NCBI GenBank assembly: GCA_021812955.1
Contig: JAKAMJ010000001.1
Location: 1-30,474 of the forward strand
Length of the DNA: 30,474 bases
From: a bacterium
Lineage (GTDB): Bacteria > Patescibacteriota > Minisyncoccia > Phycocordibacterales > Phycocordibacteraceae
Direction of reading: 5' to 3'
The notes under the pieces were generated by a model. That model did no database searches. It was not told where the DNA came from and was given only the letters and a program-made list of their open reading frames with translations. Position 1 is the first letter of the stretch. Every line of letters begins with the position of its first letter. A program made the position numbers and the translations under genes. This document shows, piece by piece, positions 1,713-27,734 of the stretch.

Positions 1713-3623
1713 TTATTCTAACACCGCCTTGATGCGACGGATGCCAGCGGAAGATGCTTCTTCTTTTTTAATCTTGAAACGGCCGAGCTCGGAGGTGCTT
1801 GAGGCGTGCGGCCCGCCGCAGAATTCTATCGAGAATGCCTCGGTGAACTTCGGGTCGGACTCGGTCGCACTCGCGGGGCCGATCGAGTAGACAGTAACCT
1901 GCTCCGGATAATTCGCGCCGAACTCGTGCTCGGCATTCAGCTTCTCTGCCTCAGCTCTCGGCATGACAGTGCGAATGACGGGCAACGCCTCTGCTATCTT
2001 TTCATTTACGATTTTTTCTACCTCTGCTTTCTGTTCGTCAGTCATTTTTTGCCCGTAGTTGAAGTCGATGCGCAGGCGCTCGGCGGTAATGTTGGAACCG
2101 CGCTGGTGCACCTCCGGTCCCAAGACCTGCTGGAGCGCTTTCAAGAGCAGGTGGTGGGCGGTGTGGTAGCGAACCGTCTGCTCGCTCTGGTCGGCAAGAC
2201 CGCCGGCGAATTTCTGCGCCGCGCCCGCGCGAGACTTAACCTGGTGTTCGTCCATGAGCTTCTGGACCGCTTCGGTGTCGACCGAGAGACCGCGTTCGCG
2301 GGCCATTTCCTCGGTCATCTCAAGCGGGAAGCCGTAGGTAGTGTACAGATCGAACACCGCTTCCGCCTCAATGTATGGTTTCGTAAACCCGACATGCTTT
2401 TCGAACTCGCGGAGACCGTTGGCGAGCGTCTTCCTAAACTGCGCTTCTTCTTTCTCAAGTTCTTCGCGGATGATAGCTGAGGCCGCTTGCACGAACGGAT
2501 ACTGTCCGACGTATGCTGCGCCGAAGCTCTCCGCAACCTCGGCGAGCACGGCCTCCTTGATACCGAGCTTGTCGGCCTCGCGGATAGAGCGTCGAATAAG
2601 GCGGCGCAGAATGTAGCCCTGCTCGCTATTGCCGGGCTTTATCCCGCTCGCGAGCATGAATGTCGCCGCGCGCATGTGATCCAAGATAATCCTAAACGAC
2701 CGAGTTATAGGAATCTGATTCCTATATGTTTGGCTGGAGCGGGATTCGAGCACGGCGCGAGCGGCGTCGAAGATATCGGTGAGAAATACGTCAGGATTAT
2801 CGCGTGTAGCGGCGGTGAGGCGCTCGAGCCCGCCACCGAAGTCTACGTTGCGCTTGGGCAATTCTTTGAACGAACCGTCTTCCTGCTTGATGAACTGCAT
2901 GAAGACAGAATTGCCGATCTCGATGAAGCGGCCGCAATCGCAGTTGGGGTGGCACTCAGGGCCAAACGCTGGGTCGTGCGGCAGGCCGAAGTCATAGAAG
3001 ACTTCAGAATCCGGCCCGCCGATCTCGCCTGCGGGCATTTTGCTCGGCACCCCTGCCCTGCTCCACCAGTTTTTCTTCGCACCATAGGCGAAGATTCGCC
3101 CGCCCTGCATGCCGACTTCGTTCCCCCGCTCTTCAGTACCGAGCTCGACGAATTTTGCTTCGATTCCCTTTTCGTTAAAAATCTTCTTCCATATTTCAAC
3201 CGCTTCGGTGTCTGTCGTCATGCCGCTCTCAGCATCGCCGCCAAAGACCGTCACATAGAGCTTCTCCGGGTCGAGCCCGAGGCCTTCTTCTTTATTCGTC
3301 AGGAATTCAAAAATCCACGGGAGCTGTTCCTGCTTGAAATAGTCGCCGAGGCTCCAGTTGCCGAGCATTTCGAAAAATGTCGTGTGGCGATTGTCGCCGA
3401 CCTCTTCGATGTCTTCGGCGCGGAAGCTCATCTGCGAGTTGGCGAGGCGCGCGCCCTCCGGGTGCTCTGCACCCATGAGGTAGGGCACGAGCGGCTGCAT
3501 GCCGCTGCTCGTGAAGAGCGTGGTCGGATCATTTTCCGGAACGATAGGCGCACTCGGGATAATCGCGTGCCCGCGCTTCGCATAAAAATCGAGGAATCGC
3601 GTGCGTACGTCTGCTACCGTCAT
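1713..3623 (-). CDS. alaS: Alanine-tRNA ligase, short form (636 aa, no C-Ala domain)
   Basis: DPTTLFTSSGMQP, HTTFFEMLGNWS, VDFGGGLERL, GYILRRLIRR; editing motifs HTAHH and FCGGPH; ends GIRRIKAVLE. Confidence 0.97.
   Translation of the reverse strand: MTVADVRTRFLDFYAKRGHAIIPSAPIVPENDPTTLFTSSGMQPLVPYLMGAEHPEGARLANSQMSFRAEDIEEVGDNRHTTFFEMLGNWSLGDYFKQEQLPWIFEFLTNKEEGLGLDPEKLYVTVFGGDAESGMTTDTEAVEIWKKIFNEKGIEAKFVELGTEERGNEVGMQGGRIFAYGAKKNWWSRAGVPSKMPAGEIGGPDSEVFYDFGLPHDPAFGPECHPNCDCGRFIEIGNSVFMQFIKQEDGSFKELPKRNVDFGGGLERLTAATRDNPDVFLTDIFDAARAVLESRSSQTYRNQIPITRSFRIILDHMRAATFMLASGIKPGNSEQGYILRRLIRRSIREADKLGIKEAVLAEVAESFGAAYVGQYPFVQAASAIIREELEKEEAQFRKTLANGLREFEKHVGFTKPYIEAEAVFDLYTTYGFPLEMTEEMARERGLSVDTEAVQKLMDEHQVKSRAGAAQKFAGGLADQSEQTVRYHTAHHLLLKALQQVLGPEVHQRGSNITAERLRIDFNYGQKMTDEQKAEVEKIVNEKIAEALPVIRTVMPRAEAEKLNAEHEFGANYPEQVTVYSIGPASATESDPKFTEAFSIEFCGGPHASSTSELGRFKIKKEEASSAGIRRIKAVLE
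1715..1723 (-). promoter_or_regulatory. Extended -10 TGTTAGAAT overlapping the last codons of alaS, 6 nt before ATG 1708
   Basis: gtg tta gaa taa (V-L-E-stop of alaS) spells TGTTAGAAT; spacer aaaggg. Confidence 0.6.
2706..2726. repeat. 21-bp palindrome TATAGGAATCTGATTCCTATA inside alaS
   Basis: Perfect 10-bp arms; near-identical copy at 15040-15060. Confidence 0.95.
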
Positions 3624-5970: not shown

Positions 5971-5994
5971 AAAAGTAGCCAGGTCTGACCTGGC
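5971..5994. terminator. Hairpin GCCAGGTC-T-GACCTGGC; probable terminator of the mnmA-ung unit, also REP-like
   Basis: 8-bp arms; minus-strand tail TACTTTT; GTAG immediately 5' of the stem on the plus strand. Confidence 0.55.
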
Positions 5995-6006
5995 CGCTTA
6001 CGAGAG

Positions 6007-6690
6007 CTAGCTCCAGTCAATAGGAGTATGCCCATGGGTGATGAGGTAGGAATTCGCCTTGGAGAAGTGCTTGCAGCCGAAGAAGCCCGCGTGCGCGGAG
6101 AGCGGCGAGGGGTGTGGCGCTTCGATGACGAGGTGTTTGGTGCGGTCGATGTGGGCGCCCTTCTGTTTTGCATAGTTGCCCCAGAGGATGAAAACGAGGT
6201 GCTCGCGCTCGTCTGCGAGCGCGCGGATGACGGCGTCGGTGAACTGCTCCCAGCCTTTCTTTTGGTGCGAGCCGGCTGCATGCGCACGAACGGTGAGGGT
6301 CGCGTTTAAGAGCAGCACCCCTTGCTCTGCCCACCGCGATAAATCGCCACTTCTTTCTGTATTGAAGTTCGACTTCAATACTGGCCCTAGATCGGTTGCG
6401 ATCTCTTTGAAGATGTTCTGGAGCGAAGGCGGTACTGGCGTCTGCTCGCCGACGGCGAAGGCGAGGCCGTTCGCTTGCCCGTCGCCGTGATACGGGTCCT
6501 GTCCGAGTATCACGACCTTTACCTTGTCGAACGGGCACAGGTCAAACGCACGGAAAATGTTCTTCGGCGCAGGGTACACTGCGCCGTTCTGATATTCTTC
6601 TTTTACAAATCGCGCGAGCTCGGCGAAGTATTCCTGCTCAAACTCGCCTTTCAGTTTCTCTTTCCACGACGACTCAATTTTTACTTCCAT
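6007..6690 (-). CDS. ung: Uracil-DNA glycosylase, family 1
   Basis: GQDPYH, GLAF, PPSLQNIFKE, GVLLLNATLTV, HPSPLS motifs. Confidence 0.97.
   Translation of the reverse strand: MEVKIESSWKEKLKGEFEQEYFAELARFVKEEYQNGAVYPAPKNIFRAFDLCPFDKVKVVILGQDPYHGDGQANGLAFAVGEQTPVPPSLQNIFKEIATDLGPVLKSNFNTERSGDLSRWAEQGVLLLNATLTVRAHAAGSHQKKGWEQFTDAVIRALADEREHLVFILWGNYAKQKGAHIDRTKHLVIEAPHPSPLSAHAGFFGCKHFSKANSYLITHGHTPIDWS
6359..6381. repeat. Palindrome GTATTGAAGT-TCG-ACTTCAATAC inside ung
   Basis: Perfect 10-bp arms; 18 nt are identical (inverted) to 16488-16505. Confidence 0.9.
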
Positions 6691-7474
6691 TGTTTTTGCC
6701 TGCGCGGTGCAGCGCGAGAAGGGTCTTGCCCGCCGCTTCGCGGTAGGTGCAGTAGTCGCAAGGGCCGCCGCCGAACGCCGTGCCGACGGGCGGGATCTCG
6801 TCGGAGAGGAGCGTCTCTTTCAGGCGGAGGAGCGTCGGCTCGACCCAATCGTCTTTGCCGGCGTACGGGATGAGCACCACGTCGAACTCGAGCTTCGCAT
6901 CGAAGGCCTCGGCGTCTGAATTGCCGTTGGCATACACGAAATACCCCGTCGGCGAGACGACGAAGCCGTTCTTGCGGAAGAGCCACTGATACACCTCCAT
7001 CTGCCGCTTGTACGAGTCGTACAGGTCGTCCTCGCTCGATGGCCCCACCTTCTTGCTCGTGGCCTTGTAGTCGACGATGATGAGCTCGCCCGCAGGGTTC
7101 ACCCACACGTCGTCGATGCCGCCGCGCAGCGTGATGTTCGTCGGCTCGTGGTGAAAACTTATACCGCGCTTGAGCGCGTCGCGCCATTCGTCGAGCTTCT
7201 CGTGCGCATATGGCACGGCGTCTATGCCGTATCTTTTCATAAGCTGGTGCGGCTCGCCTTTTGCGCGGAGCGCGTCGAACTCGCGCTTGAAGAGCTCGTC
7301 GACGGCATTGTTGAGCGTGAACGACGGCCCGCTCGGGCGCTTCACGCCGTAGCGCATGTCGAGATACGCGCAGCGCGGGCACTCGGAGAAGAGGTCTATC
7401 TTGGACCGGCTCACGCGATACGGCTCCGTCGAGGCCGGATCGAAGACGCCCCATTTCCCTTTCGCGAACGCCAT
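6674..7474 (-). CDS. PD-(D/E)XK nuclease, RecB/Cas4-like, with two CxxC pairs
   Basis: Likely start MAFAKGK, 1 nt after the upstream stop. SRSKIDLFSECPRC, GGIDD, IVDYKAT, QMEVY, CDYC. Overlaps the ung start. Confidence 0.85.
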   Translation of the reverse strand: MAFAKGKWGVFDPASTEPYRVSRSKIDLFSECPRCAYLDMRYGVKRPSGPSFTLNNAVDELFKREFDALRAKGEPHQLMKRYGIDAVPYAHEKLDEWRDALKRGISFHHEPTNITLRGGIDDVWVNPAGELIIVDYKATSKKVGPSSEDDLYDSYKRQMEVYQWLFRKNGFVVSPTGYFVYANGNSDAEAFDAKLEFDVVLIPYAGKDDWVEPTLLRLKETLLSDEIPPVGTAFGGGPCDYCTYREAAGKTLLALHRAGKNNGSKN

Positions 7475-7475
7475 G

Positions 7476-7946
7476 TCAGTCCGAAGTAGCGAACCGAGCG
7501 ACGATCGGCGCGCCGGTAGCGAAATCGACATAGACACTGTCCGTCGAGAGGTCGAAGGCCCCGTCGCCGTCGTCGCGATACAGCTCGACCGCATAGGTGA
7601 ACCCAGGCACGGTCGCGCGCAAGAGCGGGACCGTCACGCCGTTGCGCGGGCCGTTGACGCGCACAGCTCCGAGCACGTTCCCGAGCTCATCGCCGTTCAT
7701 CTCGCGCACGGTTACCCACGCGCCAGGCGGCGGGACGGCAACCGAATCGACGACCACTTCGGAACCGGCGCGTTGGTCCGCGACCGAGACGGCGTCGCTG
7801 TGCGGCGCTGGCGCTTGTGGCGAGTGCCGCTCGGTCTTCGCCCGGAACGGGAGCGGCGGATTGTCGCTGCCGAACCACCAAGCTCCGACCAGGAGCGCAC
7901 CGAGCATGAACCCTGCCACGAACGAATGTGTCGAGAAGTGCTTCAT
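7476..7946 (-). CDS. Hypothetical membrane-anchored exported protein, 156 aa
   Basis: N-terminal hydrophobic helix then a beta-rich domain; ATGA-type overlap with the upstream gene. Confidence 0.8.
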   Translation of the reverse strand: MKHFSTHSFVAGFMLGALLVGAWWFGSDNPPLPFRAKTERHSPQAPAPHSDAVSVADQRAGSEVVVDSVAVPPPGAWVTVREMNGDELGNVLGAVRVNGPRNGVTVPLLRATVPGFTYAVELYRDDGDGAFDLSTDSVYVDFATGAPIVARFATSD

Positions 7947-8815
7947 GGCAGCGTCGGGGCCGATGCGTGCGCGCCGTTCAGGGAAAGCAGCCCCTCGGCT
8001 TCGGCCAGTATCTCGCCGACGCGCGCGGGCGGGAGCTTCAGGACGTCGAGCCGGCGGCGTTCGCGGAACAATTCGTCGACCGCGATGCTCCCGCTGTCGA
8101 TGAGCAGGCGCTTCTCAGAGCGCGAGAGCCGCGTAAGCGTGGTGACCGGATACACTTTCGCACGGCTCATGCGTATGAAAAGAGAATCGTGCGCGGGATA
8201 CCCCCACCCGAGCAGGTCTACGCCCGAGCATTCGGCATACGCTACCGCCTCAGAGGTGAACTTCGTGTTGGTTATCAGTATGCCGCGATCAATCTCGCGC
8301 TCCGGCTTCGCCCTCGCGCGAGAGAATATGTCGTCGAAGCGGCTCTTCACGTAAAGAGCGACTTTCAGGTCGGTCTTGTAGTTCGGATCATTGTGGTACT
8401 TCAGCTCGGCCGCGAGCCGCACATCCTGCCCCGGGTGGGACGCGTACAGGTCCACCTCGTGAGGGACGCAGTGGCCTTGGATGATCTTGCGTGTCTCGAC
8501 CCGCCACCCCTCGGCACGATACAGATGCGATACGAAATCTTCGAACGGGTGGCCTGTCGGCCCGAGCTCGAGCAGCGCGCGCCGGAGCGCGTAGCGAGCG
8601 GCGACCGGCCTGGATTCTCGGCGCATGAGCGTAAATGCGCGCGTATGCACTTCTTTGGACGTCATGCCTGGGACGACTGCCTCCGTGACGACTTTCGTGA
8701 TGCGTTCGGCGGTATGCTCGCCGGCCCCGGCCCGCTTGAGCGAAGCTGTAAGGCGGGCGGGGTCGAACGGCTGTCTCGTCCCGTCTGCCTTTATGATGAT
8801 CGGCAGCGCTGTCAT
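7943..8815 (-). CDS. ATP-cone domain fused to an Mrr-like PD-(D/E)XK endonuclease domain
   Basis: Start MTALPIIIKADGTRQPFD (ATP-cone pattern), overlapping the upstream stop; GHPFEDFV, HEVDLYA, ELKYH, GILITNTKFTSEA. Confidence 0.85.
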   Translation of the reverse strand: MTALPIIIKADGTRQPFDPARLTASLKRAGAGEHTAERITKVVTEAVVPGMTSKEVHTRAFTLMRRESRPVAARYALRRALLELGPTGHPFEDFVSHLYRAEGWRVETRKIIQGHCVPHEVDLYASHPGQDVRLAAELKYHNDPNYKTDLKVALYVKSRFDDIFSRARAKPEREIDRGILITNTKFTSEAVAYAECSGVDLLGWGYPAHDSLFIRMSRAKVYPVTTLTRLSRSEKRLLIDSGSIAVDELFRERRRLDVLKLPPARVGEILAEAEGLLSLNGAHASAPTLP

Positions 8816-9228
8816 AAGCCGGTAGTGCTTGCCGTGCGGCCGTTTACCGTTACCGACGAAACGCGCACGCTTGCCGGCGCGGAGACCTTCACGGCAAACG
8901 CCGCGTGCGAGGGAACCTGCAAGCACACGCCTTCCGTGGTCGGAACGACGAGGGCGACGCGAATGGTTTCCGTGCTCGACGCGGTCCCGGCAGTGTCCGC
9001 GCTCGCGGAGACCGTCGCGCACGCGTCGGGAACGTCGAGAGTGCCCGAGATGGAGTGGACGCCTTTCCGATACGCATCACGGAGCGCGACGACCGGTGCC
9101 GGCTCGGCCGGTTTGGGCACTTCGGTGCGGACGACTTCGCGCGCGTGCGGCGTTATGAACAGGAATCCAGCGAGCACGACGCATGCGATGATGACGGATG
9201 CAGCCCGGAAACGCGTTCGCCTGGTCAT
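8812..9228 (-). CDS. Hypothetical membrane-anchored protein, 138 aa
   Basis: Basic N-terminus plus TM helix; two Cys; 4-nt overlaps with both neighbours. Confidence 0.75.
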   Translation of the reverse strand: MTRRTRFRAASVIIACVVLAGFLFITPHAREVVRTEVPKPAEPAPVVALRDAYRKGVHSISGTLDVPDACATVSASADTAGTASSTETIRVALVVPTTEGVCLQVPSHAAFAVKVSAPASVRVSSVTVNGRTASTTGL

Positions 9229-10160
9229 TCCCTAATGATACCACCCCCCACCATGCTATCGCCACGATAAAAGACGATGGACTGCCCAGGAGCGACGGCG
9301 TCTGAGACGGGCTCCTCCGGCACGAATCGGTCGCCGCTCACACGCCCGGGGACGCGCGCGCCGCGGTAACGGTACTGCGCAGACGTCGCCTGCGACGGGT
9401 CGGCAAACCAATTCGCGTTCTCGAAGCTGATACCCCGTACGTCATGCTCGCCCTGTTCCCGGGCGACCCGCACCTCTTTCTTTCCGACGTCTTTCCCCAC
9501 CACGTACCACGGCCCATCGGGCAGCGGCACCCGCTGCCCGATGGTGTACAGGACCGCAGGATTGTCCGTGCCCAGCTCCTGCCGCAAGAAATCATCCACC
9601 GACACGTTGCCGAGGAAGCACACGCCCTGGCTGTCCCGCTTATCGGCCACGGGCAAGCCGAACGCGCGCGCGAGCCGGCGCACCTCCCGTTTGTCCATGT
9701 GCCCCACCGGAAAGAGCGTGGCTTGCAACACCTCCTTCGGCACGGCCCACAGGAAATAGCGCTGGTCCTTCTCGCCGCTCTCGTAGTGCCCGGTCGCGAT
9801 CGCGTCCGCGCCGGCCGCTCTCGCGTAGCGGTAGAACGCGCCGAACTTCACGTCCTTGTTGCACATCACGTCCGGGTTCGGCGTGCGGCCGGCGCGATAC
9901 TCGGCGAGTAGATAATCGATGACTCCTTCCTTATATTCCGCGCTCGCGTCGAGCGTGCGAAACGGGATGCGCAGATGCGCCGCGACGCGCATCGCGTCGC
10001 GGCGATCGGCCGCCCAGGTGCACGGCATCCCGCTCGGGTACCAGCCCTTGATGAACACGCCAGTCACCCGCGCCCCCGCACGCTGCAAGAGCGCGGCAGA
10101 CACGGCAGAATCGACGCCGCCGGACAGCCCCACGAACACGCTCTTTCCTTTCAGCTCCAT
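9225..10160 (-). CDS. mnmA: tRNA 2-thiouridine(34) synthase, compact (311 aa)
   Basis: SGGVDS, TPNPDVMCN, ATGHY, KDQRYFL, DSQGVCF, PGQSIVFY. Confidence 0.95.
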   Translation of the reverse strand: MELKGKSVFVGLSGGVDSAVSAALLQRAGARVTGVFIKGWYPSGMPCTWAADRRDAMRVAAHLRIPFRTLDASAEYKEGVIDYLLAEYRAGRTPNPDVMCNKDVKFGAFYRYARAAGADAIATGHYESGEKDQRYFLWAVPKEVLQATLFPVGHMDKREVRRLARAFGLPVADKRDSQGVCFLGNVSVDDFLRQELGTDNPAVLYTIGQRVPLPDGPWYVVGKDVGKKEVRVAREQGEHDVRGISFENANWFADPSQATSAQYRYRGARVPGRVSGDRFVPEEPVSDAVAPGQSIVFYRGDSMVGGGIIRE

Positions 10161-10166
10161 CCCCCC

Positions 10167-10172
10167 AGCTTA
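10167..10172 (-). promoter_or_regulatory. -10 hexamer TAAGCT, 6 nt before the mnmA ATG
   Basis: TAnnnT, then GGGGGG, then ATG. Confidence 0.45.
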
Positions 10173-10223
10173 CACGATTTTCTTCCGGCGCGAGGCCGGT
10201 GAGAGGTCCAGGCTCTCTCGCGT

Positions 10224-10928
10224 CTACTGCAAATATCTCCGCAGGTTGGCCTGATGGCCGGCATACGTGGAAGCGTAGTGCATGAGGCCATCCCGGCCGG
10301 TGAGGTAATACAGGAACGGCGTGCTCGCCGGATGCACGGCCGCGTCGAGCGAATCGAGCCCGGGCTCGTTTATCGGCTCGGCCGGGAGCCCGGCGTGCGC
10401 GTACGTCTCCGGCGCGGCGTCTGCCTGGAGCCGCATGCCCTTTGCGATCCGATTCCATAAGATGCCGGATACCATACGGCGGTCGGCGGGAGCCTTCGCT
10501 TCGCCTTCTATTATCGACGCCATGATGACGACGTCGCGGAGCGAATGGCCGGATGCGCGTACGTCCGACAGCAGCGGCGCTACGCGAGTATCGAAATCCG
10601 CCCGCATCCGGCTGACGATCTCAGACGACGTGTCGCCAGCCTGGAAGAAATATGTATCCGGGAACAGGTACCCCTCCTGCCCTTTCGCCGCGGCCAGGAA
10701 ATCCTGCTCGGTCACCCACGGCAACGAGCGCGCCACGAGCGCAGCCATCTCCGGCAGCGTCGTGCCTTCGACGAACGTGACGCGCACCTGCGGCGGCGGA
10801 ACCGGCCGTACGATGATGCTCCGTATGAAATGACGTGATGGCGGATACGCGGCCGCCACCACTGCCATCACGACGACCGTTGCGCCTATCATCGCGATCC
10901 ATCGCGCATGCCTACGAAACGCGTTCAT
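10224..10928 (-). CDS. mltG: Endolytic transglycosylase MltG (YceG-like), short form
   Basis: N-terminal TM; EGYLFPDTY, ASIIEGE (catalytic Glu), LQAD, LPAEPINEPG, YLTGRDG. Confidence 0.9.
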   Translation of the reverse strand: MNAFRRHARWIAMIGATVVVMAVVAAAYPPSRHFIRSIIVRPVPPPQVRVTFVEGTTLPEMAALVARSLPWVTEQDFLAAAKGQEGYLFPDTYFFQAGDTSSEIVSRMRADFDTRVAPLLSDVRASGHSLRDVVIMASIIEGEAKAPADRRMVSGILWNRIAKGMRLQADAAPETYAHAGLPAEPINEPGLDSLDAAVHPASTPFLYYLTGRDGLMHYASTYAGHQANLRRYLQ

Positions 10929-10932
10929 GTCG

Positions 10933-12291
10933 TCAGACCGGCAGGTTCGCCGGCGCTTCGCCGGTCACGGATTGTATCCGTTCGAGGCTCGGAGCCGGGA
11001 CGGCGCTCGACGGGATATGGAAGATCGTGGCCAGCTCCTCCGTACTCATCACTATCGTGTCCTTGCTCGAGTCTGAAGGCTCATGGAAGAATTGGCGGCG
11101 GCGGAATGAGTTGACGAGCTGTCTGCGATGCGCGTCTTTCAGCTTTCCCACTCCGAATTCCCATGGGTAGTCTTCAAAACCGGTCATCCACCCTGCCGGC
11201 TTGAACCCGTTCCAGCCGTCATCGGCGGAGAATTGCTTGAAGAGGCCGGTCACGCCCGCGATGGTCGTCGAATCGAACGCTGCGGGCGTCGCCAGGTAGA
11301 CGGCGCGTATGCCGACATCGAACCCGAATTTCGACACGTTCCGCTCTATCGCCGCGATCTTTTCCATCTGGCCCTTCGTCGGATTAGGGAATCCGGGGAC
11401 CTCCTTGCCGGTCACTGGATCCTTGTAAGGCTCGCGCGTCGCCTTACGGATATTGTCGACAAGCTCTTTCGCTTCGTCCTTCCATGTGTACGGCTTCCCG
11501 GCAGGATTGAGCTTGTCGTATTTCTCGCCCTTGTGCGTACGGATGACGAATTGCAGCCAGAGCTGCTCTCCCTTCCTCATCGATCCCATGAACTCGACCA
11601 GGTTCGCGAGCGGATCGACTTGCTCTTCTTCTTTCTGCACCTTGTCAAGCCCGTATTCTACATACGTCTTTATCGGTAACGGGTCTTTCTCGGTATGCAC
11701 GAAATCGCATCCCCAGATCTCCCACTCTTCCGGCTTCGCCGTGATGATCCGCGTATAGTCTTCCGCCTCTACGACCTGCGCCCCGGGATACTGCGCATAT
11801 ATCTGCGCTTCGATGATCCGGCGGAACCCGATGCGCGTCCAGATGAAGAAGTGCACCCGCCCCTCTATGGATACGATCTCAAGCGACCACCACGGCCGCA
11901 CGGCTCCTTTGAAATATTTCTTATACCAGTTCGACTCGCCTGGGCCCAGGTGGATGCCGGAGAGGAACGCTTCCATAGCGAGCGGCGTCTTTACGACAGT
12001 GCGCGGCGGGCGTATCTCAAGCAGCACCGTCTTCTGATTCGCGATGAATTCGGAACGCTTAAGGATGACCCAGAGCGTCCACGCGCCGTCTACGAGCAGG
12101 AACGGCAGCCACGCCGGCGCAAGGAAGAACGCCATCGAAGACGCGAGGTACACGGCGCGCGGCATCACGATGAACGAGAACGCCAGGATCACGAGCCCGA
12201 GGATGAATATCGGGCGATGCTTCGGCCGCACGCCGGTCTGCTCTTTCGTCTTCTTCGTCTGTGCGCGCAACTGATCGAGGAATGGAAGCAT
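10933..12291 (-). CDS. Conserved hypothetical membrane protein, about 452 aa
   Basis: Long clean ORF with two N-terminal TM segments. The ORF-track TTG start at 12315 overlaps the promoter, so ATG 12291 is preferred. Confidence 0.8.
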   Translation of the reverse strand: MLPFLDQLRAQTKKTKEQTGVRPKHRPIFILGLVILAFSFIVMPRAVYLASSMAFFLAPAWLPFLLVDGAWTLWVILKRSEFIANQKTVLLEIRPPRTVVKTPLAMEAFLSGIHLGPGESNWYKKYFKGAVRPWWSLEIVSIEGRVHFFIWTRIGFRRIIEAQIYAQYPGAQVVEAEDYTRIITAKPEEWEIWGCDFVHTEKDPLPIKTYVEYGLDKVQKEEEQVDPLANLVEFMGSMRKGEQLWLQFVIRTHKGEKYDKLNPAGKPYTWKDEAKELVDNIRKATREPYKDPVTGKEVPGFPNPTKGQMEKIAAIERNVSKFGFDVGIRAVYLATPAAFDSTTIAGVTGLFKQFSADDGWNGFKPAGWMTGFEDYPWEFGVGKLKDAHRRQLVNSFRRRQFFHEPSDSSKDTIVMSTEELATIFHIPSSAVPAPSLERIQSVTGEAPANLPV

Positions 12292-12302
12292 ACGATGCTG
12301 GA

Positions 12303-12311
12303 AGTATAGCA
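12303..12311 (-). promoter_or_regulatory. Extended -10 TGCTATACT, 11 nt before ATG 12291
   Basis: TGnTAnnnT match directly after a terminator. Confidence 0.6.
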
Positions 12312-12352
12312 ACAAAAACAGCCGCGCCCGCTTCTGAGCGGGCGCGGCTGTT
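12311..12352 (-). terminator. Intrinsic terminator
   Basis: 15-bp perfect arms aacagccgcgcccgc/gcgggcgcggctgtt with a T-rich tail on the minus strand. Confidence 0.85.
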
Positions 12353-12363
12353 CATAGGGACCG

Positions 12364-13437
12364 TCACGCTGCCGAATACCGGCCGTCCTTGAGTCGTTTG
12401 AAATAACGGGAGTCGTTCAGGTTCACCAGGATGGTGTTGTCCTTCACGAAACGCGCCTTCTTCACGTGCTTGATTATCTCGTCTTTCTTCATCGGGCCGT
12501 TCTCATCGAGCGTCTTGCGTATGACGTCGCGCACGACGCCGGGCGAATAGCCCCACTCCGTAAGCGCGTACAGGCCGCGGCCCACTAGCACGAAACGCGG
12601 ATCCTTGATGAGCTCGTTATGCGTCGTGGCGACGTGCGCCCGTTTCGAGAAAAGCTCGCCGATCGTCTTCGCCACGGCGGAGAAGTGCATCGGCTCGCCA
12701 TGGCGCTTGATGGCGAGGTATGCGTAATCGCGAATGCCCTTCACGCGGATCGCCGGCGCCGAAGCGCGGCCCCACTGCTCAAGCGGGTTACTGCCGATAT
12801 TCTTGGAAAGGGACAGCCAGCGCTTCAGCACCTCTTCGTTCTTGTATGCGTCGTTCACGCCCTTGAGCTCGTCGAGGAACCGGTCGAGCAGCTCGGCTTC
12901 CGTCACTACATCATCGTCGGGGAGCGCGGAGTACAGGCGCGACAGCGCCTCGTGGACGTTCTTGGCGGTGGAAGCGTCCACATGCCACCGCGACAGGAAC
13001 TCGCTCGTCTCCCGCTCGCGGAAGAACGTCGCGTCGAGCATGAGCAGGAACCGGAACCGGTTGCGGCTCTTCTCGTCTTTGCCGAGCGCGGAAAGGAGCT
13101 CGGCCTCTGGCACGATGACTCCGAGCGACGCGACATATCGCGCGATCTCCTCGAACGCTTCCTTGGCTTCTTTGAACGCTTGGCTCGCGCGGATAGCGTC
13201 GAGCCCTGCAGCCTCTATCTGGCGGACGCGCTCGCGCGTGATGCTCGAGAGGTCGCCGATCGCTTCGAGCGTCTCGCGCTCCGGATTCGCTCCGAGCCCG
13301 AACCGGCGTACGAGCACCTCGCGCGGCCTCTCGGGGGCAGCGGCCAGCAGCCTCTTCACGAGCGTCGCACTATCAAAAGAAAACGCGGCGCGCGTAATGG
13401 CCTTTGTCGTGCTCCGCTTCTTTGCCGCTTTTGTCAT
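12364..13437 (-). CDS. Sigma70 region 4-like HTH protein with C-terminal winged-HTH (HARE-HTH / RNAP delta-like) domains
   Basis: RRFGL...ETLEAIG...ITRERVRQIE (sigma region 4); TTHNELIKDPRFVLVGRGLYAL. Confidence 0.8.
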   Translation of the reverse strand: MTKAAKKRSTTKAITRAAFSFDSATLVKRLLAAAPERPREVLVRRFGLGANPERETLEAIGDLSSITRERVRQIEAAGLDAIRASQAFKEAKEAFEEIARYVASLGVIVPEAELLSALGKDEKSRNRFRFLLMLDATFFRERETSEFLSRWHVDASTAKNVHEALSRLYSALPDDDVVTEAELLDRFLDELKGVNDAYKNEEVLKRWLSLSKNIGSNPLEQWGRASAPAIRVKGIRDYAYLAIKRHGEPMHFSAVAKTIGELFSKRAHVATTHNELIKDPRFVLVGRGLYALTEWGYSPGVVRDVIRKTLDENGPMKKDEIIKHVKKARFVKDNTILVNLNDSRYFKRLKDGRYSAA

Positions 13438-13485
13438 GTGTTCTAATTTATACCGGACACCATTAAATAAGTCAATCGCACCGGG

Positions 13486-15876
13486 TTACACCACGAGATT
13501 TATGATTTTCCCAGGCACGTAGACGACGCGCTTCGGCTCAGCGTCCCCGAGCGCCGTAGCTACCGTATCAATTTTTCGCGCGGCTGCAAGCGCGTCCGCT
13601 TCCGACGCATCCGCGGCGAGCACTGCTTCCCCGCGGCGTTTGCCGTTCACCTGCACGACGACCGCGGCCTCGCTCGCGGCGAGCAGCGCCGGCTCGTATG
13701 CCGGCCATGAGGCTTGGTGGATAGATCCGTCCTCGCCGAGGCGCTCCCAGAGCTCATCAGTCATATGCGGCGCGAACGGCGCAAGCACTTTCAAGAATGA
13801 ACGCCATTGCTCCTTCCCTATCTCCCCCTCCTTCTCCGCGGCGTTGACGAAGACCATCATCTGGCTCACGGCCGTGTTGAACTTGAACGCCTCGATATCC
13901 TCCCCGACCTTCTTAATGGTTTCGTGCAGGGCCTTGTCGAGCCGCGCGCGCGACTCATCAGCGACCTTTTCTTGCAGGCGCCACACGCGCTCGATGAAGC
14001 GCGCCGTGCCAGCGATCGAGCTCGTCGACCAGGCTGTCGCGTTCTCGAACGGACCCATGAACATCTCGTAGAGGCGGAAAGCGTCCGCGCCGTATTCCGC
14101 GACCACGTCGTCCGGATTGATGACGTTGCCGAAACGCTTGCTCATCTTGCGCCCGTCCTCTGCGAGGATGAGGCCTACCGAGGCGAGCCGGGCGAATGGC
14201 TCGAGCGTGCTCACGACGCTGATATCGTAGAGGAACTTGTGCCAGAAACGCGCGTATATCAGGTGGCGCGTCGCGTGCTCGGCGCCGCCGACATACATAT
14301 CGACCGGTGCCCAATATTTCTCTGCTTTGGTCGAGACGAGCGCGCCGTCATTTCCCGGGTCCATGAAGCGCAAGTAGTACCACGAAGATCCCGCCCACTG
14401 CGGCATGGTGTTCGTCTCGCGTTTGCCGGGGCCTTTGCACTTCGGGCAGGTGGTATTGACCCAGGAATCGATGGCGGCGAGTGGCGACTCGCCCGTGCCG
14501 GTCGGCTCGTACGATTCGACCTCCGGCAGCGTAACTGGCAAATCCTCGTATGGCACAGGTACCGTACCGCACTTCTCGCAATGAATAACCGGGATCGGCT
14601 CGCCCCAATAACGCTGGCGCGAGAACACCCAGTCGCGCAGCTTGTAGCGCACCGCCTTCTTGCCGCCCGCATACGCAACGATATCCCCCATCACCTCGCG
14701 ATTCCCCTTCCCGCTAAACTCGCTCGAGTCCACGAGCACTCCGTCGCCGGTAAACGGCAAATTACCACCTTCAATCACGCGCGATATCGACAACCCGAAT
14801 TTCTTAGCAAAAGCGTAGTCGCGCTCGTCGTGAGCCGGGACAGCCATCACAGCGCCGGTGCCATAGCTTCCAAGCACGTAGTCGGCGACGAATACCGGAA
14901 CCTCTTCTTTGGTTGCTGGGTTCACCGCCATCACTCCCTCGAGCTTGACGCCCGTCTTCTCCTTCCCTTCTGCACCACGCTCGATCTCGGTCTTGCCGGC
15001 GGCAGTCACGGCGTACGCGTGCACCTCCTTGAAATTTTTTATAGGAATCAGATTCCTATATGCCGATTGGAGCAACGGGTGCTCGGGCGCGAGGACCACG
15101 TAGGTTACGCCGAAGAGCGTATCGGGGCGGGTAGTGAACACGGCAATCTTTTCGTCAGTACCAGTGATAGCAAAATCGAGCTCGGCACCCTCGGAACGCC
15201 CGATCCAGTTGCGCTGCGCTTCTTTGATGTGCTCGGGCCAATTCAATGTATCAAGGTCGACGAGAAGCCGGTCGGCGTACTCGGTGATCTTCAAGACCCA
15301 CTGCGGGAGCCGTTTCTTCTCGACCGGAGTACCGCACCGCTCGCAAGCATTGCCGTCCAGGTCTTCATTAGCGAGACCGGTTTTGCAGGAAGGGCACCAG
15401 TTGATAGGTTCTTCAGACTCGAACGCAAGTCCCTGCTCGAGCAGCTTGAGGAATATCCACTGTGTCCAGTGGTAGTAGGCCGGGTCGGTCGTGTTTATCT
15501 CTCGCGACCAGTCATAGTCGAACCCGAGGCGCGCGAGCTGCGACTTGAAGGTCGCGATGTTCTTCTCGACGGCCGCGCGCGGGTGCGCCTTGTGCTTGAG
15601 CGCATAGTTCTCAGCCGGGAGGCCGAACGCGTCCCAGCCCATCGGGTGCAACACCTCGTGCCCCTGCATCCGCGCGTGACGGGAGAAGACGTCCGTCGCG
15701 ATGTATCCCTTCGGATGCCCGACATGGAGCCCTTCGCCCGAGGGGTACGGGAACATATCGAGGACGTACTTCTTCGGCTTGCCCTCAACCTCTTGCGAGC
15801 GATACGTCTCGTCGCGCATCCAACGCTCTTGCCATTTCTTTTCTACCTCCTTGTGCGGGAACGCTTCCTTCGCCAT
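13486..15876 (-). CDS. leuS: Leucine-tRNA ligase
   Basis: MFPYPSG..LHVGH (HIGH), GWDAFGLPAEN, FTTRPDT, SRQRYWG, KMSKR. Confidence 0.98.
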   Translation of the reverse strand: MAKEAFPHKEVEKKWQERWMRDETYRSQEVEGKPKKYVLDMFPYPSGEGLHVGHPKGYIATDVFSRHARMQGHEVLHPMGWDAFGLPAENYALKHKAHPRAAVEKNIATFKSQLARLGFDYDWSREINTTDPAYYHWTQWIFLKLLEQGLAFESEEPINWCPSCKTGLANEDLDGNACERCGTPVEKKRLPQWVLKITEYADRLLVDLDTLNWPEHIKEAQRNWIGRSEGAELDFAITGTDEKIAVFTTRPDTLFGVTYVVLAPEHPLLQSAYRNLIPIKNFKEVHAYAVTAAGKTEIERGAEGKEKTGVKLEGVMAVNPATKEEVPVFVADYVLGSYGTGAVMAVPAHDERDYAFAKKFGLSISRVIEGGNLPFTGDGVLVDSSEFSGKGNREVMGDIVAYAGGKKAVRYKLRDWVFSRQRYWGEPIPVIHCEKCGTVPVPYEDLPVTLPEVESYEPTGTGESPLAAIDSWVNTTCPKCKGPGKRETNTMPQWAGSSWYYLRFMDPGNDGALVSTKAEKYWAPVDMYVGGAEHATRHLIYARFWHKFLYDISVVSTLEPFARLASVGLILAEDGRKMSKRFGNVINPDDVVAEYGADAFRLYEMFMGPFENATAWSTSSIAGTARFIERVWRLQEKVADESRARLDKALHETIKKVGEDIEAFKFNTAVSQMMVFVNAAEKEGEIGKEQWRSFLKVLAPFAPHMTDELWERLGEDGSIHQASWPAYEPALLAASEAAVVVQVNGKRRGEAVLAADASEADALAAARKIDTVATALGDAEPKRVVYVPGKIINLVV
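15040..15060. repeat. 21-bp palindrome TATAGGAATCAGATTCCTATA inside leuS
   Basis: Perfect 10-bp arms; differs from 2706-2726 only at the central base. Confidence 0.95.
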
Positions 15877-15882
15877 ATCCCT

Positions 15883-16422
15883 CTAGTCGCGGAAGCGGCG
15901 GACGCCCACGTAGATGAGCGCGATAAGCGCGATGGCGGAGATGCCGAGGCGCAGCCATTCTCCCGCGTCGCCCCAATACTGCATCGCCCCGACGATGAGC
16001 GCGAGCACGCCGCCGTAAGAGAGGCCGGAGGAAACGATCGACGAACCGATCGGCACGACGCCAACGACGAGCGCGATGATGCCGAGCACGGTCATGAGGA
16101 TGAACGCGTAGAGATGCTGCTCTGAGAGCGCTTGCTCGTATTTGGGCTGGCATGTCGCTGCATAGTCGCAGTAGCCGGCGAGCGCCTTCGCAGGCGTCGT
16201 AGCGACCGGCTGCGGCGGGTACTCCGTCCAGACGCCGCCCTGCGCGTCGCACGCGGCGGCATCTTGCGCCTGGACGGCAGGCGTCGGGCAGTATGCCTGG
16301 TAATCCGGCGAAGGGAACGCGATCTGTTCGATCACGAAAAAGAAGACGTTTAAGATGACAACGATACCGATAAGGAGCGCCCAGCGGACGAACTTCGGGT
16401 GCTTTGGTGCGGTTGTTTCCAT
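15883..16422 (-). CDS. Hypothetical membrane protein, 179 aa, with about 4 TM helices and a Cys-containing external loop
   Basis: Hydrophobic segments, four Cys in the loop; promoter upstream. Confidence 0.8.
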   Translation of the reverse strand: METTAPKHPKFVRWALLIGIVVILNVFFFVIEQIAFPSPDYQAYCPTPAVQAQDAAACDAQGGVWTEYPPQPVATTPAKALAGYCDYAATCQPKYEQALSEQHLYAFILMTVLGIIALVVGVVPIGSSIVSSGLSYGGVLALIVGAMQYWGDAGEWLRLGISAIALIALIYVGVRRFRD

Positions 16423-16430
16423 ATCCTCGG

Positions 16431-16439
16431 ATTATACCA
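16431..16439 (-). promoter_or_regulatory. Extended -10 TGGTATAAT, 8 nt before ATG 16422
   Basis: Consensus TATAAT with the TG extension. Confidence 0.75.
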
Positions 16440-16487
16440 CAAAAGCAAAACCCCCGCGCAATACTGGGATGGGGTGCGCATGAGGCC

Positions 16488-16518
16488 GTATTGAAGTCGA
16501 ACTTCACTTCAACTACAG
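16488..16518. repeat. Intergenic variant of the ung hairpin, with an internal 5-nt duplication
   Basis: Minus strand CTGTAGTTGAAGTGAAGTTCGACTTCAATAC versus ung CTGTATTGAAGTTCGACTTCAATAC. Confidence 0.85.
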
Positions 16519-18845: not shown

Positions 18846-18873
18846 GAGTGGTTGGACACCTAGTGCCCAACCG

Positions 18874-25898: not shown

Positions 25899-25924
25899 GG
25901 TTAGAAACTATGACATCCGATGTC

Positions 25925-27487
25925 CTAGTTTTGGGTCGGCGTCGCGTGCCGCTCGACGAAGGCGTCGAGCTTCTCGCGGAGCGCGTTCTCGGATTCCTCA
26001 CGGATCTCTTTCGATTCCTTGATGGCCATGAGGATGCCACCCGCTTCTCGCGAGAGGTATTCCTCGAGCTTCTTCGCCATCGCACTCGTTTCTTCAGGCG
26101 CGAAGGAGTCGAGATAGCCGTTGGTCGCCGCGAATATGACCGCCGCCTCCATCTCGAACGGAAGCGGCACGCCATTCTTCTGCGTGAGCACATCGGTCAT
26201 GCGGCGACCCGCGTCGATCTGCCGCTTCGTGTCGGCGTCGAGGTCGCTCGAGAACTGCATGAACGCCTCCAGCTCGCGGAACTGCGCGAGCTGAAGCTTG
26301 ATCTTGCCCGAGACTTTCTTCATCGCCTTCGTCTGCGCCGAAGAGCCGACGCGCGAGACCGAGATGCCGACGTTGATAGCCGGACGCTGGCCATTGTTGA
26401 AGAGGCCGGCCTCGAGGTAGATCTGGCCGTCGGTAATCGAGATGACGTTCGTCGGGATGTAGGCCGAGACGTCGCCCTCCTGCGTCTCGATGATAGGAAG
26501 CGCAGTGAGCGAGCCTCCGCCCTTCTCTTTCGAGAGCTTGGCGGCGCGTTCGAGGAGGCGCGAGTGCAGGTAGAAGATGTCGCCCGGATACGCCTCGCGG
26601 CCTGGCGGGCGGCGCAGGAGCAAAGACATCTGGCGGTAGGCTACCGCTTGCTTTGAGAGGTCGTCATAGACGACGAGCGCGTCCTTCCCTTTCTCCATGA
26701 AATACTCGCCTATGGCCGCGCCGGCGAACGGAGCGAGGAACTGAAGCGCCGCGGGGGAGCTCGCCGGCGCGGTTACGACGATGGAGTACTCCATCGCTCC
26801 TCGCGCTTCGAGCTCGGCGACGATCTTCGCCGTCTTCGATTCCTTCTGACCGATGGCGACGTAGATGCAGATCGGCCGGGTTTCCTTCGGCTCGTGTTTC
26901 TGATTGAGGATCGTGTCGATGGCGACGGTCGTCTTGCCGGTGCCGCGATCGCCGATGATAAGCTCGCGCTGGCCGCGGCCGATCGGAATCATTGCATCCA
27001 CCGCTTTGATTCCGGTGTGGAGCGGCGTGTTGACCGGAGAACGGTCGATGATGCCGTAGGCCTCGCGCTCGATCGGGCGCACGTCCTTGGCGGCAATCGC
27101 ACCCTTGCCGTCTACCGGCTCGCCGAGCGCGTTCACTACACGCCCCACGAGGGCGTCCCCGACCGGGATCGAGAGCAGCCGCTCGGTCCGGCGCACGAGC
27201 ATTCCCTCGCTGACTTTCGAGCCGTCGCCGAGCACTACGGCGCGCACGCCGTCTTCTTCCAGGTTCAGGATGAGCCCGTAGATCGCGGACGAATCCATGA
27301 TCGCGTCTTCGAGCGGGCGATCGAACGCCCGGTCGAACAACACCATCTCGGACAACGCGGCTTGAGACAAGCCGTCGATCTCTGCGATGCCGTCGCCTGC
27401 CGCGCGCACGATGCCGGTCTCCTGCGCGGTCGCGTCGGGCGTCCAGGCCGCGATCTCTTTCTCTATCCTCTCGATGAGGCTTTGCAT
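25925..27487 (-). CDS. atpA: ATP synthase alpha subunit
   Basis: Start MQSLIER, 1 nt after the upstream stop; [24 protein letters not shown]. Confidence 0.98.
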
Positions 27488-27488
27488 G

Positions 27489-27734
27489 TCAGGTGATGAT
27501 TCTTTGATAAATGTCGAGCAGGGCGCGCTTGCCTGTCTGGTCGATGAGCAGGCCGCCCTCAAGCGAGCGCCAGCCGGAGATGAGCGAAGGGTTTTCCGCG
27601 GCTGTCTCGCGGCGCGGCGCGAGCTTCGCGGCGCGGGCCTCGCGCATCCGCAGCTCGCGAAGGATGCGCGGCAGGAGCTTCAGTCGACCCGTACGCTTCA
27701 GATGGGCGATGAATGTCTCGTACTCAGCTTGCAT
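27489..27734 (-). CDS. atpH: Minimal ATP synthase delta-like subunit, 81 aa
   Basis: Position between atpF and atpA; NPSLISGW...LLIDQT resembles the delta C-terminal motif. Confidence 0.6.

Follow-up and report, generated by a model that had tools for sequence, protein, structure and literature searches.

REP-like hairpin repeats inside housekeeping genes of a Patescibacteria genome and their probable association with RAYT-like transposase genes

The 30,474-nt stretch of Patescibacteria DNA analysed here (the window) raises the question of why a genome of 60% GC should have essential genes that contain perfect, AT-rich palindromes. The window is contig C23 of a 70-contig, 548-kb, 90%-complete genome from mine drainage (G000). 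An initial annotation had described 21-nt hairpins of one sequence family (family A) in alaS and leuS, and of a second (family B) in ung and, as a decayed copy, in an intergenic spacer, and had considered them a candidate for an undescribed system. The analysis indicated that these palindromes are very probably REP-like hairpin repeats (REP, repetitive extragenic palindromic sequence), short non-autonomous DNA elements that belong with genes for single-stranded DNA transposase-like enzymes of the Y1/HUH type, similar to the REP-associated tyrosine transposases (RAYTs). The four sequences were as described. The two 21-mers match at 13 of 21 positions, and the three stem differences reported as compensatory were found at positions 4/18, 6/16 and 8/14, which differ on both sides of the stem and keep Watson-Crick pairing. 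Folded as single-stranded DNA, the hairpins of the window formed a 9-10-bp stem with a 3-nt loop (z-scores -5 to -6.5), and the decayed copy folded more weakly (z = -2.2). The consensus pattern given in the initial annotation matched these sites of the window only.

Scanning the whole genome for palindromes with a 9-bp stem and a 3-nt loop (9+3+9) revealed a large class distinct from terminators, with about 83 copies in about 15 sequence families. The initial count of at least four copies in 30 kb was therefore an understatement. The apex GTCNGAC was common to most families, with GTTNAAC, ATCNGAT and ACTNAGT as close variants. Core-type sites numbered 70 (47 perfect), against 2.2 (0.25) in second-order Markov simulations, an excess of about 30-fold. 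A chance origin was rejected on this comparison and on the consensus pattern, which had no match in 100 shuffles. Family A comprised 5 copies and family B about 12-17. Inverted doublets with 5-7-nt spacers, resembling REPINs (REP doublets forming hairpins), occurred on nine contigs (C3, C7, C12, C16, C17, C28, C40, C48 and C58), and all copies of the window were singlets. With our own gene calls, by which the genome is 84% coding, 44 of the 83 copies (53%) lay inside 30 genes, 35 were intergenic and 4 straddled gene ends; intergenic DNA was nonetheless enriched about 2.6-fold. The density of intergenic copies was highest where the neighbouring genes converge and intermediate where they run in tandem; between divergent genes, copies were rare. 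This is the pattern published for REPs (PMC3733652, PMC8266576).

The evidence that ties these palindromes to an enzyme came from the transposase-like genes of the same genome. Five open reading frames (ORFs) matched the Pfam family Y1_Tnp (IS200-like HUH transposase), all above the gathering cut-off, and a genome-wide search for further transposase-like fragments returned only these five loci. Four of the genes, on contigs C69, C53, C8 and C42, were bracketed at both ends, within 0-30 nt, by one palindrome family each. The palindromes at the C69 gene are close to family B, from which they are distinguished by the loop and a single compensated pair. Among the 30 relatives searched, 16 of the 18 congeners had homologues of the enzymes, as did 6 of the 12 other genera sampled from the order, with up to 10 per genome in some cases. 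Matched palindromes bracketed 29 of the 30 homologous loci examined. These came from more than 20 other Patescibacteria genomes and included named Saccharibacteria, Paceibacterota and 'Patescibacteria group' metagenome-assembled genomes (MAGs). Homologues from beyond Patescibacteria (Fermentibacteria, Elusimicrobia and deltaproteobacterial MAGs) had no matched flanking palindromes within 600 nt. An assembly artefact was rejected as a source of the palindromes, given the same architecture in more than 20 independent genomes and the presence of all four window copies on contigs from four public mine-drainage metagenome runs.

Two of the enzyme loci showed further features. The fifth Y1 gene (contig C53, 8458-9212; L037) is the most like a classical RAYT of the five. 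In place of 21-nt palindromes it had inverted repeats of about 17-21 nt on its flanks (AATGGGGACAGTCACGA and its complement), and a third copy of this repeat lies elsewhere in the genome. The C8 gene (L039, 237-972) was accompanied by four copies of its own palindrome, one before the gene, one after it and two in frame at about codons 59 and 152. Its orthologue in a congener (G007; L061, 1441-2178), 66% identical, carried four hairpins at the same positions with a completely different sequence, so all four changed in concert.

The encoded proteins, about 220-250 aa long with a helical C-terminal extension, had the HUH motif (NHxH) and the catalytic Tyr invariant in a 21-sequence alignment. An AlphaFold2 model of the enzyme had a predicted local distance difference test (pLDDT) value of 91.6. 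Its best fold match in the PDB was 4ER8, a complex of the E. coli RAYT with a REP hairpin, followed by the transposases (TnpA) of ISDra2, IS608 and IS200. The bracketing of enzyme genes by palindromes, together with this fold match, pointed to a system of the REP/RAYT ("REPtron") type.

The initial annotation had also suggested one family of structured elements in which pairing is conserved over stem sequence. We examined this with an alignment of 31 representatives, made up of one palindrome from each enzyme locus and the two families of the window, and the suggestion was borne out, the two variants belonging to one superfamily. Of all cells in the alignment, 94% were paired, 10 of 10 stem pairs changed on both sides, and the covariation score was 0.99, compared with 0.23 after shuffling and 0.12-0.21 with slid partners. 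G-U or U-G occurred in only 3 of about 290 paired cells. This near-absence indicated complementarity at the DNA level rather than RNA structure.

The intragenic copies lay, as in the window, in genes that are core genes by Pfam. The hosts included seven tRNA synthetase genes (alaS, leuS and five elsewhere in the genome), genes of replication, repair and RNA turnover (dnaE, dnaG, topA, recG, a UvrD/AddA-like helicase-nuclease and RNase R), genes of tRNA and RNA modification (tgt, miaA, tsaD and a pseudouridine synthase), and the metabolic genes for enolase and zwf. The comparison of coding with intergenic placement, proposed in the initial annotation, gave the counts above, and the frame bias that it proposed looking for was found and was strong. 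Family A is free of stop codons solely in the frame actually used. Family B has a TGA in one frame, and 6 of 6 copies lay in the frame giving L-K-S-N/D-F-N. In the GTCNGAC families, 15 of 19 copies read the core as Ser-Asp/Asn. This bias suggests selection for loop-compatible peptides. The family B copy in the enolase gene (contig C10, 1922-1966; L172) had an unusual arrangement, with a complete palindrome enclosed by two incomplete family B arms, so that the peptide reads VLKS-VLKSNFNT-FNT. It looks like an insertion into, or a duplication within, an earlier hairpin.

Structural mapping of the intragenic copies covered Ung. The ung palindrome was absent from 11 aligned congeneric ung genes and is thus lineage-specific. 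It encodes residues 104-113, the sole long segment of the Ung model with pLDDT below 50, which is a coil. At the same Ung loop, the ung genes of three congeners (G009, G006 and G001; L004, L006 and L011) carried a different 8-residue insertion (such as DRAKSEEVLRPSG). The stems in the DNA of this insertion were of just 4 bp, with no strong palindrome among them, and the insertion may therefore be old and decayed.

The loop of LeuRS that holds the window copy was occupied by other palindromes elsewhere, of the GGATTTACGAAGTCC type in G009 and G001, decayed in G006, and 29 nt long in G012. The GGATTTACGAAGTCC-type leuS copies of G009 and G001 were each the sole copy of that sequence found in their genome. 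A LeuRS tree did not separate independent insertions from one old palindrome at this loop. In that tree (leuS of 14 congeners, L076-L089), the genus split into two clades, and the branches joining them were very long (1.3 and 1.6 changes per site, compared with about 0.3 inside the clades). Two types of gene, or a difference in domains, may lie behind this split.

Evidence on mobility came from one of the bracketed genes. The hairpin-gene-hairpin unit of contig C53 lies between ligA and gatC. In five congeners the two genes are separated by 22-101 nt that hold no such unit; on this comparison of sequences, the unit is an insertion relative to the congeners. It lies about 8 codons ahead of the ancestral ligA stop codon (L042, 12558-15157, compared with L190-L194). 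Downstream of the unit, a remnant of the old ligA tail (FLKK...stop) persists, and the present ligA has a new tail at its end. The enzyme loci in general were not syntenic between species. Family A was not found in any of the 30 relatives searched, so that among the 31 genomes it occurs in this species alone. Two metagenome contigs (L195, 1636-1656; L196, 1695-1715) carried its exact 21-mer as part of a slightly longer palindrome; they have 41-42% GC and otherwise no similarity to this genome.

Several observations weigh against the assignment to a REP/RAYT-type system. The covariation statistic is partly circular, because the members were picked as palindromes. Outside this circularity stand the findings that nearly every enzyme gene is bracketed, that the two brackets of a gene agree, and that the brackets differ between genes. 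A profile of the enzyme family had no match among PDB sequences, and the link to RAYT and TnpA came from the fold search only. The proteins scored 22-66 bits with the NCBIfam equivalog REP_Tyr_transpos, below its cut-off of 80 bits, and in this they differ from recognised RAYTs. The 5' tag (GTAG, GTGG or CGTC) found at the foot of REP hairpins was absent as well, and the alignment had no conserved flank. No enzyme gene flanked by family A (the TATAGGAATC family) was found in the 90%-complete assembly, and no cognate transposase-like gene of this family was found in the 30 relatives or on metagenome contigs. In alaS, the palindrome takes up a variable segment that has the same length and another sequence (YGDDSAS or similar) in relatives; such equal-length replacement, rather than added length, is not predicted by a simple insertion model. 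Presence/absence polymorphism, a further check proposed in the initial annotation, was not seen at the window copies on contigs of the four metagenome runs, nor was any indel or joint, although this negative is weak because contigs hide rare variants. The mobility of the solo copies was therefore inferred, not observed.

With these reservations, a mechanism can be proposed. Each enzyme paralogue would work with its own hairpin family, the stem sequence setting the specificity and co-varying with the enzyme, and the shared apex GTCNGAC might serve as a common contact. By analogy with the biochemistry of TnpA-REP and IS200/IS605 enzymes (PMC8266576), from which the steps of binding, cleavage and joining are taken, the enzyme would bind the extruded hairpin in single-stranded DNA, make a cut at the hairpin foot, and paste the hairpin into another site or exchange it there. 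A unit is 21-23 nt long, or about 7 codons. Copies that fell in a stop-free, polar frame within a tolerant surface loop would survive purifying selection, which might account for their presence in alaS, leuS and ung. It is also conceivable, but we think unlikely, that hairpins in this lineage have been exchanged in place and not merely inserted. This idea arose because the C8 gene and its orthologue carry four hairpins of different sequence at the same positions, because one LeuRS loop carries three palindrome families across species, and because the AlaRS palindrome replaces seven codons with the length unchanged. If the enzymes do catalyse hairpin-for-hairpin replacement, the hairpin elements would supply directed variation to the loops of essential proteins in reduced genomes.

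The same observations could be read in another way, with IS200-like insertion sequences that are still autonomous and the palindromes as their ends and miniature forms. The units would then move, and the solo hairpins would be by-products similar to miniature inverted-repeat transposable elements, without a domesticated, vertically inherited RAYT. We consider this possible, though the less expected outcome. The absence of the C53 unit from five congeners, the non-syntenic loci and the up to 10 paralogues in some relatives all fit such elements, as does the direct orientation of the flanking copies in G000, judged by the central base, which is also seen at IS200/IS605 ends. However, the paralogues of G000 each occur once and share no more than 54% identity with one another, there are about 16 solo hairpins for each enzyme gene (83 copies, 5 genes), and a RAYT was the best fold match. 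The left and right hairpins are also identical in sequence, and do not form distinct left-end and right-end structures.

A role in RNA, as terminators, mRNA stabilisers or processing tags for which the palindromes were kept, seems very unlikely, and the RNA processing tag considered in the initial annotation was judged accordingly, because G-U pairs are almost absent and copies stand in both orientations relative to transcription (alaS compared with leuS). Classical REPs do have such secondary roles (PMC3733652, PMC8266576), and the concentration of intergenic copies downstream of genes and the one copy that supplies a stop codon agree with them. More than half of the copies nevertheless lie inside coding sequence, and the palindromes are paired with enzymes of DNA hairpins. 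An Rfam search of the window returned three tRNAs only, no family matching the palindromes. Dyad-symmetric operators, bound as duplex DNA by dimeric regulators, would account equally well for the perfect symmetry and for covariation restricted to Watson-Crick pairs. We regard them as the most improbable explanation, since about 15 families in a 0.55-Mb genome would require about 15 regulators, half of the sites lie deep in coding sequences, others stand at both ends of HUH enzyme genes, and divergent promoter regions are depleted of them. For REP-like hairpins paired with RAYT-like enzymes, the two other descriptions offered in the initial annotation, a 'coding-compatible micro-element' and a 'ssDNA signal', are apt.

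The palindromes of the window and their host genes are listed in Table 1. The leading 19 nt of the decayed intergenic copy equal the minus-strand reading of the ung copy, and are followed by the duplication and a decayed tail. A copy related to the GCCAGGTCTGACCTGGC palindrome lies on contig C3. The end of the palindrome between the ATP synthase genes forms the stop codon of the gene at 25925-27562(-). The GGACACTNAGTGTCC family, to which the mismatched intergenic palindrome is similar, is the one bracketing the C42 transposase-like gene.

Table 1. REP-like palindromes of the window and the genes that host them
Feature	Position	Strand	Location and remarks
alaS, host gene	1713..3623	-	ORF intact, 636 aa
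Family A REP-like palindrome (TATAGGAATCWGATTCCTATA)	2706..2726		In frame in alaS, peptide YRNQIPI; one of five identical copies in the genome
REP-like palindrome, core GCCAGGTCTGACCTGGC	5976..5996		72-nt spacer upstream of the ung stop codon
ung, host gene	6007..6690	-	ORF intact, 227 aa
Family B REP-like palindrome, core TATTGAAGTTCGACTTCAATA at 6360-6380	6359..6381 (23 nt)		In frame in ung, peptide VLKSNFNT
leuS, host gene	13486..15876	-	ORF intact, 796 aa
Family A REP-like palindrome (TATAGGAATCWGATTCCTATA)	15040..15060		In frame in leuS, peptide YRNLIPI
Decayed family B copy	16488..16516		Intergenic; 5-nt CTTCA duplication; 2 mismatches to the consensus of the initial annotation
Palindrome GTTGGACACCTAGTGCCCAAC, 1 mismatch	18851..18871		Intergenic; similar to the GGACACTNAGTGTCC family
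REP-like palindrome, CTAGGACATCSGATGTCCTAG family	25908..25928		Between two ATP synthase genes

Read as REP-like repeats, the palindromes in the essential genes of this genome would be selfish or domesticated hairpin DNA and not a new signalling system. REP/RAYT-type systems would then thrive even in ultra-small Patescibacteria genomes, which have little intergenic space, with more than half of the copies housed inside proteins. This bears on annotation, both of contig breaks and of marker genes whose loops carry short insertions specific to a lineage, and on alignment-based phylogeny of Patescibacteria. It also bears on how HUH enzymes recognise untagged, perfectly symmetric hairpins. The literature searched yielded no paper on REP, RAYT or IS200 in connection with Patescibacteria.

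Among known systems, IS200/IS605 elements and their miniature derivatives likewise have a transposase of the Y1 fold, recognition of subterminal hairpins in single-stranded DNA, and a compact insertable hairpin-tnpA-hairpin unit. They are multi-copy, with distinct left-end and right-end hairpins and guide sequences, whereas the units described here are single-copy and divergent, with the same perfect palindrome at both ends, and the abundant form is the solo 21-nt hairpin. Rickettsia palindromic elements (RPEs) are alike in being in-frame palindromic repeats in essential genes of a reduced genome, tolerated as an extra surface peptide. In contrast, RPEs are about 100-150 bp long, of other families and without a known dedicated transposase, and the present elements are 21-23 nt and paired with Y1 enzymes.

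The likeness to REP/RAYT systems (REPtrons), such as E. coli YafM (PDB 4ER8) and the group 3 systems of Pseudomonas and Stenotrophomonas with short perfect palindromes, covers several features. In both, a Y1/HUH gene lies between 20-30-nt palindromes of its own; dispersed copies, solo or in doublets, are many and far outnumber the enzyme gene; the sequence families are species-specific, with several per genome; intergenic copies are enriched downstream of genes; and occasional copies lie in frame in tRNA synthetase, replication and repair genes (PMC3733652, PMC8266576). The doublets on nine contigs correspond to REPINs, in which two inverted REPs form a longer hairpin. Published work (PMC3733652) already includes in-frame REPs within genes for tRNA synthetases and DNA repair, and two species in which one gene carries different REPs at roughly the same position, so the system is not an undescribed one as initially proposed. 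The differences, beyond the missing tag and the protein scores, are that the conserved part is the hairpin apex GTCNGAC, that location is not predominantly extragenic, that the enzyme loci are non-syntenic, and that the host has an ultra-small Patescibacteria genome. Each paralogue is single-copy, but the C53 unit is inserted, and vertical inheritance is uncertain. The system is therefore atypical, with perfect palindromes that have no GTAG tag, several orthogonal enzyme-hairpin pairs per genome, and 53% of copies in frame inside about 30 housekeeping genes. The kind of element is known; its form here is unusual, and the bacterial group is new for it.

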